Shown here: in pieces, positions 37,758 to 57,020 of the stretch
Layout: each line of letters begins with the position of its first letter
Numbering within the stretch: position 1 is the first letter of the stretch
Assembly: GCA_024679065.1 (NCBI GenBank)
Contig: JAGIQG010000005.1
Location: 93,310,001 to 93,374,000 of the forward strand
Length of the DNA: 64,000 bases
Origin: Sphyrna mokarran
Taxonomy: Eukaryota
Direction of reading: 5' to 3'
Position numbers and translations under genes: made by a program
Notes under the pieces: generated by a model
Told to the model about the DNA's origin: nothing
The model's database searches: none
Seen by the model: the letters and a program-made list of their open reading frames with translations, nothing else

Positions 37758-38050
37758 CAAAGAACAAAGAACAAAGAACAAAACAGCACGGGAAACAGGC
37801 CCTTTGACCCAACGAGCCCATGCTGCCACCCCATTTTCACCCTTGATCCCTGTCTATGTTTATAGAAATCTGCATTGGTATAGAAACCTGCATTGGAACC
37901 AAATTAGCGAGATAATTTAGGGAGAATTTGTTTTGCCAATCAGCCTAAGAGCACGTCTTTGGGATGTGGGAGAAAATCGAAGCACTGGGAGAAAACCCAT
38001 GCAAGCACGGGGAAAATGTGCAAACTCCCACAGATACAGACCCAAATCCA
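37758..38050 (-). mobile_element. Headless V-domain plus CR1-type tail ending in (TTCTTTG)n; probably the 3' end of the adjacent CR1
   Basis: Minus strand GATTTGGGTCTGTATCTGTGGGAGTTTGCACATTTTCCCCG...CTCCCACATCCCAAAGACGTGC...GGGCTCGTTGGGTCAAAGGGCCTGTTTCCCGTGCTG(TTCTTTG)3. No A/B boxes upstream. Confidence 0.8.
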
Positions 38051-38319
38051 TGTATCTGCACAGCACTGCGATAGTCACTGAGCTGTTGTATTGCCCATCA
38101 ATTGGTCCAGTTCAAGCATACACTAACAACGTGAAGCACTGGGCTACTCTCGAGAAATCCAAGAGCAGCCCTCTCACGACCCATTGCTTCTATGCCCCTT
38201 GTTGGACAACAAAGCGGACTGAAGTACCTGTAGGATAAAACAGAAATACATCAATATCATGCACAACTTACGCAATTCCCAGGGAAGTCCGAACGCTCAT
38301 GATCGCTATTTTAAATCAG

Positions 38320-39480
38320 TCTTCTATATCCCTCCATTCCCATTCTGTTCATGTGCCCATCTAAGTATCTCTTAAATAACTCAGAGTCCCTGCCTCCACC
38401 ATTTTACTTGGCAGCGCGTTCCATATCCCCACTACCCATGTGTGAAAAAACTCCCTCTGGCATCCAAATTATACGTTACCCCCCTCACCCTAAGCCCCTG
38501 ACCCCTCGTGCTATTTGAGTCCATCCTAGGAAAAAGCTTAACCCTGTTTACTCTATCTATACCCCTCATAATCTTGTACGCCTCTATTAGATCTCTTCTC
38601 AGTCTATGCCTTTCTATAGAAAACAACCCCAATTTGCCAAACCTTTCTCGTAACCCAGACTTTCTATACCAGGCAACATCCTGGTAAACCTCCTCTGCAC
38701 TCTCTCCAGAGTCTCCACGTCCTTCTGGTAGTAAGGCGACCAGAACTGGACGCAGTATTCCAAATGAGGTCTAACCAACGTTCTATACAACTGCAACATT
38801 AAACGCCAGCTCTTGTACTCTATACCCCTTCCTATAAAGGCTAGTATACCATATGCTTTCCTCACAACCTTTTCCACCTGTTCTGCCACCTTCAAAGACT
38901 TGTGCATCTGCACCCCCAGGTCCCTCTGTGTTTCTTTTATTTTAATTTTGTCTACCCTTTATCAGATACCTCCCCCCTACATTCTTTCCCCCGAAATGCA
39001 TCACCTTGCATTTATCAGGATTGAATTCCATTTGCCGTCTATCTGCCCAATCTACCAGTCTATCTATGTCCTGCTGCATCGCCTAACAATGCTCCTCATT
39101 ATCTGCAAGTCCAGCCATCTTTGTATTGTCTGCAAACTTGCTGATCACACCACTTACTCCCTCTTCCAAGTCGTTTGTATGTATTACAAATAGAAGAGGT
39201 CCCAGTACCGAGCCCTGCGGCACACCACTAATGACCGACCTCCAGCTAGAAAAACACCCTTCCACTATTACTCTGTCTCCTATTACCAAGACAGTTACTT
39301 ATCCATCTAGCTACCTGTCCTTGTAATCTATTAGCCTTGACCTTTTCAACTTACCTCCCATAAGGGACTTTGTCAAACGCCATACTGAAATCCATATAGA
39401 CGACATCAATGGCTCACCCTTTGTCGACCATTTTCGTCACCTCCTCAAAAAATTCTACCAGATTCGTGAGGCACGACCTC
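38320..39480 (-). mobile_element. CpG-rich CR1 LINE ORF2 (RT and C-terminus), frameshifted
   Basis: WRSVISGVPQGSVLGPLLFVIHTNDL...ISKFADNTK; LMLQLYRTLVRPHLEYCVQFWSPYYQKDVETLERVQRRFTRMLPG; RLRRDLIEAYKIMRGIDRV. Confidence 0.97.
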
Positions 39481-50597: not shown

Positions 50598-51644
50598 GGT
50601 TCTTGCTTGAAAATTAGCATTTTTTTTCATCGTTCATGGTACAGTGATCATACCCACAAACTTCTCCTTGCAATTTTAAGCAAACTAACAATTACTACAT
50701 AGTTTATGCACGGAGGTATTCAGGGTCTCAAGACTAAATCTTGAAGACATCAACTAGAGTGTCTGAACAACATTCTTTTCAATAGCTATTATCTTGTCAC
50801 TTTGTGGAGAAATGTGTGTTTCCTTTATAAAATGTATCTCCTACTGTAAGTTGCTATATTCTCCCTCTTTTGTGTGAAGTGTCTTGTTGCAAGAAAATTA
50901 GTGCTTTCTAATTATTAATTACAGAAAACAGTCAGTAAAGGTGGTTGCAAATTGGGATTATATCGTTTGAGCAGTATGAGAACCATTTTTTAATATTTTA
51001 GAATAGAAAGTTTGCATTAACAAATGAATATTCAAACAATAAAAAAAACATGTTAACTGAAGAAGAGTAGGGAGCTAGAAACAAAATCACTATAAATGCC
51101 TTCAGCCCAACAACCAACAAAGAAATTGCATTCCTCCAATTTTGGTCTTTGTGCATTGTTCTATTTTCTTTGCCCCACCATCGGTGGCTATGCTTTAGGC
51201 TGTCAAGGCCTTAGCTCTGGAGTTACCTTCTTTTTCCTTCATACTGTTCCTTAAAATCTGCAATGTTGATTAAACTGTTTGACCAAATATTTTCTTCCTC
51301 TGCTCAACATCAATTTGTAACTGAATAATTTCCTGAGATTGTCCTTGGACTTATTGTGTTGAACGTGCTATATCAGTGTATGTTGTTGTTGTTCAAGTAC
51401 ATAACAAGTATGAATAGACCAGTTGGAGATGATGCTAAAATTACAGCACAGAAATAGCCATTCAGCACAACCCTTGTCTCATTATGTCCCTTCAACACTT
51501 TTTCCTTTATACAAGTTTTAATCTGAACTTCAATACTAACAATTTCAGGGCAGTGGAGCTGGGATTTAAATATCAAATTGGACAGGGAATCAGAGATCTG
51601 GTTTGGGGATTTTGAAGCTGGGAAATATGTCCAAGATCAGGTTT

Positions 51645-51921
51645 AGATTTGGGCCTGTGTCTGCGGGAGTTTGCGCGTTCTCCCTGTGGTTGCGTGGGTT
51701 TTCTCTGGGTGCTCCGGTTTCCTCCCACATCCCAAAAATGTGCTCTTAGGCTGATTGGGTAACAAATTGTCCCTATATTGGTCCCTATATGGGAATCTTC
51801 CACAATAGGCAGAGCTTAAAGTCATGGATATGTCATTAAGACGTTAGGACGGCAGCGCGGGCTCGTTGGGCTGAAGGGCCTGTTTCCCGTGCTGTGTTGC
51901 TCTTTGTTCTTTGTTCTTTGT
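51645..51921 (+). mobile_element. Headless V-domain plus CR1-type tail with (TTCTTTG)n, related to 37758-38050
   Basis: GATTTGGGCCTGTGTCTGCGGGAGTTTGCGCGTTCTCCC...CTCCCACATCCCAAAAATGTGCTCTTAGGCTGATTGG...GGGCTCGTTGGGCTGAAGGGCCTGTTTCCCGTGCTG..(TTCTTTG)n. Confidence 0.85.
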
Positions 51922-56755: not shown

Positions 56756-57020
56756 GCAGCATGGTGTCACAGTGATTAGCACTGCTGCTTCACAATGCTA
56801 GGGATCTGGGTTCAATTCCCAGCTTCGATCATGTCTGTGTGGAATCTGCATGTTTTCCCTGTGTGTCTGTGTGATTTTCTCTGGATGCTCTGGTTTCCTC
56901 CCACATCCTGCTAAATTCTCCCTCAGTGTGCCTGGACAGACACCCGATTAAGGGACTTTCACAATAACTTCATTGCAGTGTTAATGTAAGCTTACTAGTG
57001 ATTAATTAATTGACTTTAAG
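56755..57020 (+). mobile_element. V-SINE variant (non-CR1 tail)
   Basis: HE1 head and V-domain, then CTAAATTCTCCCTCAGTG...AACTTCATTGCAGTGTTAATGTAAGCTTACTAGTGA. Confidence 0.88.

Follow-up and report, generated by a model that had tools for sequence, protein, structure and literature searches.

A high-copy CR1 LINE variant of Sphyrna mokarran with a V-SINE relic in its 3' UTR

Introduction

Does a V domain lying between a CR1 reading frame and a CR1 tail mark a LINE-SINE chimaera that propagates as a single unit, in which direction did the domain move, and what keeps it there? CR1 LINEs carry a 3' hairpin followed by a short tandem-repeat tail, and are frequently truncated at their 5' ends. 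The question was raised by a minus-strand element in the window (the whole stretch of DNA analyzed, 64,000 nt of Sphyrna mokarran), for which the original prediction had a CR1 lineage either capturing the V domain or donating it to SINEs.

Results

Layout of the element

The element (Table 1) is a dead, 5'-truncated copy of a CR1 LINE lineage, subfamily A1. The order of parts in its 3' UTR is a splice acceptor, a folded 125-nt domain (S), a decayed tRNA head, the V domain, a variable stretch and a CR1-type tail; the tail resembles those of CR1s with short UTRs and is unlike that of the V-SINE HE1. Translation of the ORF2 fragment meets many stops, and homologous copies extend upstream past 39480, which identifies the window copy as 5'-truncated.

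Table 1. Coordinates in the window of the element, its parts and a related copy
Feature	Position	Strand	Details
CR1 ORF2 3' part (reverse transcriptase C-terminal half), inactivated, A1	38311..39480	-	stop codon 38313-38311
Poorly conserved stretch ending in pyrimidine tract and CAG (3' splice acceptor)	38228..38310	-	AG 38229-38228
S domain, ~125 nt, start of second exon	38104..38227	-	predicted three-way-junction fold
Decayed tRNA-derived SINE head	38041..38096	-	HE1-head profile, in register
V domain and short HE1-homologous stretch behind it	37919..38040	-	V core 38035-37936
Variable stretch, not HE1-like	37831..37918	-	net divergence 0.43-0.65 between subfamilies
CR1-type tail	37758..37830	-	hairpin 37830-37779; three TTCTTTG units 37778-37758
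Subfamily B copy, 5'-truncated just before the V domain	51644..51920	+	96-98% identity to relatives with spacer and ORF2

Most of the predicted architecture held: the ORF2 fragment 39480-38311 has no CR1 tail directly behind it and is followed by ~270 nt of non-ORF sequence (the spacer), then by the V domain, a hairpin and a TTCTTTG tail of three units ending at 37758. The V domain had, however, been described as headless, lacking A and B boxes, and this has to be corrected. A tRNA head of HE1 type, now decayed, occupies the final 55 nt of the spacer; an A-box-like motif is kept (38085-38075), the B box alone is deleted, and the 3' end of the remnant forms the junction motif with V. ARAGORN found no tRNA anywhere in the 64-kb window.

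Copy number and family structure

The spacer is multicopy, with 6019 first-look candidates in the genome, and the best 40 of the 6019, which were scored, had 90-92% identity. Thirty loci were taken out of these 40 matches, and in the 29 other copies that they yielded, ORF2 lay directly upstream and V downstream in 29/29, with the tail present too in 28/29. The junction motif had 38,440 exact matches in the genome (reversed control, 0); all 30 of the 30 position-ordered matches had the spacer upstream and no intact tRNA head. When copies were picked by their 5' end instead, 18/20 reached V and 16 kept the whole spacer.

Full-length copies measure ~4.6-4.7 kb and comprise a 5' UTR of ~350 nt, an ORF1 of 303 aa, ORF2 and a 3' UTR of ~500 nt. 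The family, which we take to be CR1 from its structure, has the hairpin, the short-repeat tail and the frequent 5' truncation of that group. Both endonuclease and reverse transcriptase are present in the ORF2 of a relative, L224 (Exo_endo_phos_2, E 1e-7; RVT_1, E 1e-34). The 303-aa ORF1 matched Lipase_GDSL_2 and OSK at E ~1e-5, both below the Pfam cut-off; an esterase-type ORF1 is given as a CR1 feature in the excerpted text of PMC13343379.

Subfamilies A1, A2, B, B-long and D were separated in an alignment of 180 copies (38 unclassified), and lie 7, 4, 3, 2 and 9% from their own majority, respectively. In a tree that covers CR1-like copies of the source genome only, 30/30 V-bearing ORF2 ends grouped apart from 26 short-tailed CR1s (FastTree support 0.999, midpoint root). 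These 30 were drawn from 91 V-bearing ends; a few low-identity chance neighbors occur among the 91 and none in the 30. A 400-kb sample taken at fixed steps contained 65 CR1 ORF2 ends, of which 3 had spacer and V, 43 had short tails, 17 had no tail seen and 2 lay at edges, so that V is on 3 of the 63 assessable ends. The same sample held 77 V domains (55 tRNA-headed, 19 headless, 3 LINE-type), and a TTCTTTG tail was found on 0/55 of the tRNA-headed elements.

None of the three observations that the original prediction had named as fatal to it was made, neither a single-copy spacer, nor ordinary tails on other copies of the subfamily, nor tRNA heads on most TTCTTTG-tailed V elements; the predicted flanks of the spacer, ORF2 upstream and V plus tail downstream, were consistent across copies. 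The chimaera propagates as a single unit, as the copies found by spacer, junction and 5' end and the single clade indicate. A chance neighborhood of a truncated SINE and a CR1 might be suspected where repeats are this dense (77 V domains and 65 CR1 ends in 400 kb); given an arrangement common to 29/29 and 30/30 copies, and a tail never seen behind a tRNA-headed V, it is given virtually no weight. The element is a real, high-copy CR1 variant with a captured V-SINE relic, and chance arrangement is ruled out.

A search of sequencing runs with the element's 3' 2.8 kb and flank only as query returned 11 runs, from 4 organisms and one metagenome, with shares of 0.05-0.21; this gives no evidence on spread or expression.

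The second element

The original prediction also reported a "different spacer" beside a second V element, at 51645-51921. This sequence is the unique flank of a truncated copy of a sister subfamily: the 246 nt upstream of the element at 51644 are single-copy, and 27/29 of its closest relatives have a homologous spacer, ORF2 being reached in 20/29 (BLAST). Of 29 ORF2-end matches, at least 15, all 15 of those listed, run on through the spacer to V and the tail.

A second HE1-like V-SINE type was seen at 53234-53030 (minus strand) and 56841-57020 (plus strand) of the window and at many other loci. Its 3' part differs: an AATAAA-rich tail takes the place of the hairpin and ATTCTATG tail, which likely reflects a tail swap to another LINE partner.

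Head remnant and direction of capture

A profile was built from 100 HE1 heads and applied to the 80 nt ending at the junction motif. Averages for 48 copies were 22.3-24.4 bits, vs. 0.1-1.2 bits for 1200 shuffles (maximum 16.0) and <1.5 bits for the upstream spacer, and 43/48 remnants ended at the same register. The lowest remnant score (13.5) is below that of the best shuffle, and was counted against the best explanation. In the profile alignment the A-box region survives, though decayed, and no B box is left. The V domain has 10-12 differences per 100 from the HE1 majority line, which itself matches the published V_HCD (PMC6887750, excerpted) at ~82/89 positions by eye. About 8 of the V differences from HE1 are common to all subfamilies, which fits a single capture.

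V-SINE consensus sequences of frogs and bony fish have an intact head plus V (excerpted text of PMC6887750). As the LINE has a decayed tRNA head in register with V, the flow was from SINE to LINE; that a V-SINE was taken up by the LINE can be held with very little doubt, and of the two directions in the original prediction, capture stands. The LINE as donor of the domain is very improbable. RTE and Vingi 5' UTRs are known to have supplied SINE bodies (PMC5786205, in part), which lends that direction a precedent; against it are the decayed head within the LINE, the presence of an intact head plus V in V-SINEs of both frogs and fish, and the rarity of V among CR1 ends (3/63), with the V-bearing ends forming one clade. 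Neither the SINE subfamily that acted as donor nor the source of S was found, which was also counted against the best explanation.

Tandem arrays of the 5' part of the HE1 head, with a period of ~55 nt, occur at L092 (2576-3009) and L110 (2466-2847) and form a satellite derived from a SINE head.

Divergence and predicted folds

In pairs of A, B and D, net divergence in the remnant (0.04-0.07) and in V (0.04-0.05) was above that in the tail (0.02-0.03) and below that in S (0.10-0.22). For comparison, the same pairs gave 0.23-0.37 at ORF2 four-fold sites and 0.05-0.13 at codon positions 1+2. The variable stretch was above the four-fold sites; segment replacement therefore happens, and could also homogenize the module of S, remnant and V.

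The predicted S fold had z scores of -4.4 to -4.7 in the majority lines of A1, A2, B and B-long, -2.05 in D and -2.37 in the window copy. Scores were -1.8 to -4.8 for the tail hairpin and -3.1 to -0.1 for remnant plus V; V alone folded no better than shuffles (-1.8 to +0.4). Covariation in S was weak (of 16 variable pairs 9 stay paired, 7 break and none changes on both sides), and compensatory changes were few, with one two-sided pair, across the B-box deletion. From these divergence and fold values, selection probably acts on the module.

The S domain of the window copy had 0 Rfam matches at E up to 10, and that of a B copy had one chance-level miRNA match (16 bits vs. a gathering threshold of 93). 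A 5S rRNA origin of S, considered from a resemblance, was dropped as it had no Rfam support. An ATG just before the junction opens a frame of 39-44 codons across V in all five majority lines (window 38050-37916, minus strand); this was rejected as coding because most changes are non-synonymous.

Splice sites and spliced retrocopies

A pyrimidine tract (75-94% pyrimidine) and CAG precede S in every subfamily, and the stretch ahead of them varies from ~16 to 158 nt by subfamily. Among the matches listed, the acceptor AG was present in 93/100 copies of D, an old subfamily; in A2 it is kept in 40/44, which was counted against the best explanation. A GTGAG-type donor lies ~47 nt downstream of the element start in the 5' UTRs of both A and B.

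At least 13 genomic copies have the 5' UTR GT donor joined exactly to the 3' UTR acceptor, with both ORFs dropped and an intron of ~4.1 kb removed. Directed searches yielded 1 B-type and 12 A/D-type exact joins, and reversed controls yielded 0. Nine of the 12 A/D-type copies keep ~37 nt or more of the first exon; in the other 3 the truncation point falls inside that exon. When second-exon starts not preceded by the acceptor were searched for by pattern, with donors ending in AG left out, 96 rows were obtained, and 2 of these joined the first exon to the second. Within a gap window of 10-18 nt (9 lengths), 6/6 LINE-derived joins fell at the splice length, and 5 other rows were unrelated. Only two bases of microhomology flank the join, and 0/12 other internal-deletion junctions use these splice sites or GT..AG. 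Rather than forming a clade, the spliced copies are spread over A1, A/D intermediates and B, with none in A2. On these exact joins, GT-AG splicing of LINE RNA almost certainly left the retrocopies, and the 3' UTR acceptor works.

The donor is absent from 12/23 A-type 5' ends, through a 5-nt deletion, and weakened in some B-type ends. Of nine donor-less copies with a scorable 3' end, 6 were closest to A2 and 3 were near ties; of nine donor-bearing copies, 8 were closest to A1 and one (L373) to A2. L373, with a donor and an A2-type 3' end, was counted against the best explanation. Because amplification went on in a later sublineage after the donor had been lost, the donor is dispensable and splicing is likely a by-product. 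The ~12 spliced copies against 900 ORF1-start candidates (candidates, not copy numbers) are near the share of 1.8-2% reported for human L1 SpIREs (PMC5860796).

Two other introns were considered and rejected. An internal mini-intron just after the stop would need the GT at the spacer start, which is not kept in A2, B and D, and the second 5' UTR donor of subfamily B had no such join in the 96 pattern-search rows.

Several other rearranged copies were recorded. Five related D-type copies, L245-L249 (G000:C960), have an acceptor A->G change and a common downstream flank, and are probably segmental duplicates; in 3 of the five, an internal deletion has removed V together with the variable stretch. 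Many 5'-complete copies (L217, L228, L230, L194, L355, L359, L360, L368 and L371) have lost large internal segments, with breakpoints at scattered positions. In some full-length copies (L186, L210, L211, L296, L315 and L322) part of the 5' UTR is duplicated ahead of the element start. Around an acceptor-truncated copy, L243 and L244 have near-identical 300-nt flanks on two contigs; the pair was rejected as a splice product, as such flanks indicate duplication.

Discussion

Proposed explanation

The explanation that we regard as fairly probable is that this CR1 lineage has kept the head and V of a V-SINE, with the B box deleted, more constant than neutral sequence, likely because the RNA fold aids copying, and that the splice is used, likely as a by-product. 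One capture would have taken place in the ancestor of the lineage, either through a template switch or through insertion of a SINE in the UTR; a LINE-type tail would have persisted or been acquired anew. Deletion of the B box would have ended Pol III transcription from inside the LINE, and selection on the LINE RNA (for stability, export or RNP assembly) would hold S, remnant and V. The acceptor probably came with S, as an intron end and exon-like piece. Pairing of the 5' UTR donor with this acceptor would give an ORF-less RNA of ~530 nt that still has the tail and that would be copied in trans into dead-end insertions. A further-reaching version, in which the parasite was domesticated (S, remodelled head and V forming a selected, retrotransposition-promoting RNA element) and one splice across both ORFs yields a Pol II-transcribed SINE-like RNA, is tentative, and we hold it to be possible and on the doubtful side.

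Two rival readings bear on why the module looks conserved and why the splice sites persist. That the module is a neutral passenger, conserved in appearance through 3' swaps or conversion between subfamilies or with HE1 RNA, is unlikely. Weak covariation and the want of a significant fold for V alone agree with it, as does a variable stretch changed beyond neutral sites, which suggests replacement events. HE1 is not refreshing V, however, since some 8 differences from it are common to all subfamilies; the remnant is far from the HE1 head and yet as constant as V; and a divergent stretch between conserved V and tail would call for repeated double crossovers. Less probable still is a maintained function of the splice, in which the short ORF-less RNA (first exon, S, remnant, V and tail) regulates or competes with the full-length RNA. 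The donor does lie at the same place in the A and B 5' UTRs, the acceptor is kept where the sequence before it was deleted or replaced, and A1, A/D intermediates and B all include spliced copies. The donor losses and weakenings described above argue the other way, as do the 13 spliced copies found against tens of thousands unspliced, and L1 splice sites persist through overlap with other functions (PMC5860796, in part).

Relation to known elements

The nearest known pair is the V-SINE HE1 and its partner HER1 of sharks and rays (PMC3747384, in part), with the same kind of tRNA head and V, and a CR1-type LINE with hairpin and short-repeat tail; the HE1-like SINEs seen here likewise point to a shark or ray as host. 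Here, in contrast, remnant and V lie inside an autonomous LINE, the B box is gone and the tail is the LINE-like TTCTTTG. HER1 was compared by its excerpted description, and it or a Repbase/Dfam entry may already have such a 3' UTR. The element shares the V domain with V-SINEs; intact A and B boxes are absent, a remnant being all that is left. V-SINEs are short and non-autonomous, with their own 5' end at the head, whereas here 30/30 junction matches continue upstream into the spacer. The element behaves as a CR1 LINE; it harbors the relic of a V-SINE without being one. In the MER6/MER6A MITE (PMC6887750) a promoter-less V-SINE likewise spread inside another element. MER6, according to the excerpted text, belongs to the non-autonomous DNA transposons, and its copies evolve at a roughly neutral rate, whereas the carrier here is an autonomous-type retrotransposon, its RNA contains V, and V is constant between subfamilies.

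Human L1 SpIREs are likewise retrotransposed spliced LINE RNAs with a 5' UTR donor; they are rare, about 1-2% of 5'-complete copies, and dead ends (PMC5860796, in part). Their acceptors lie in the 5' UTR or ORF1 in that account, whereas here the acceptor is in the 3' UTR, both ORFs are removed and the host element is a CR1. SpIREs are recognized by the precise absence of a GT..AG segment that full-length copies contain, and the 13 copies show it. Persaeus SIDEs from CR1 Zenon (PMC6740152, in part) and bipartite non-autonomous LINEs (PMC5786205, in part) also join LINE 5' and 3' ends. Those were ascribed to microhomology deletions and amplified as families, whereas the joins here are GT-AG and form no clade.

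The string "splic" is absent from the excerpted text of PMC6740152, and in the main text of a 2026 CR1 survey, as excerpted, it occurs 0 times and "UTR" once. SINE bodies of LINE origin and an Ingi LINE whose 5' UTR includes a Ceph-like stretch are described in the excerpted part of PMC5786205, and V in a CR1 3' UTR is not. The excerpts of PMC5499810, PMC4824008, PMC6036668 and 10.1101/2025.02.02.635956 contained nothing on the element. It is undescribed in the literature searched; Repbase, Dfam and the 1999/2002 HE1/HER1 papers may have a family consensus. The spliced retrocopies of a CR1 variant appear to be new.

Significance

The spliced copies show that a working acceptor can reside in the 3' UTR of a CR1. 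The genome contains tens of thousands of these sites, and trapping of host transcripts by them could occur. Repeat annotation will score these LINE ends as SINEs.

The conservation of SINE central domains is an open question in the field. In this high-copy LINE, V changes less than protein-coding positions of ORF2, which would make an effect measurable on the RNA, with a clear read-out. If the kept piece helps the LINE RNA, as is likely, the long-unexplained V domain becomes testable. Were domestication true, it would be the first direct sign that V acts on its carrier RNA, and the splice across both ORFs would be a route from a LINE to a new non-autonomous element that needs no deletion.
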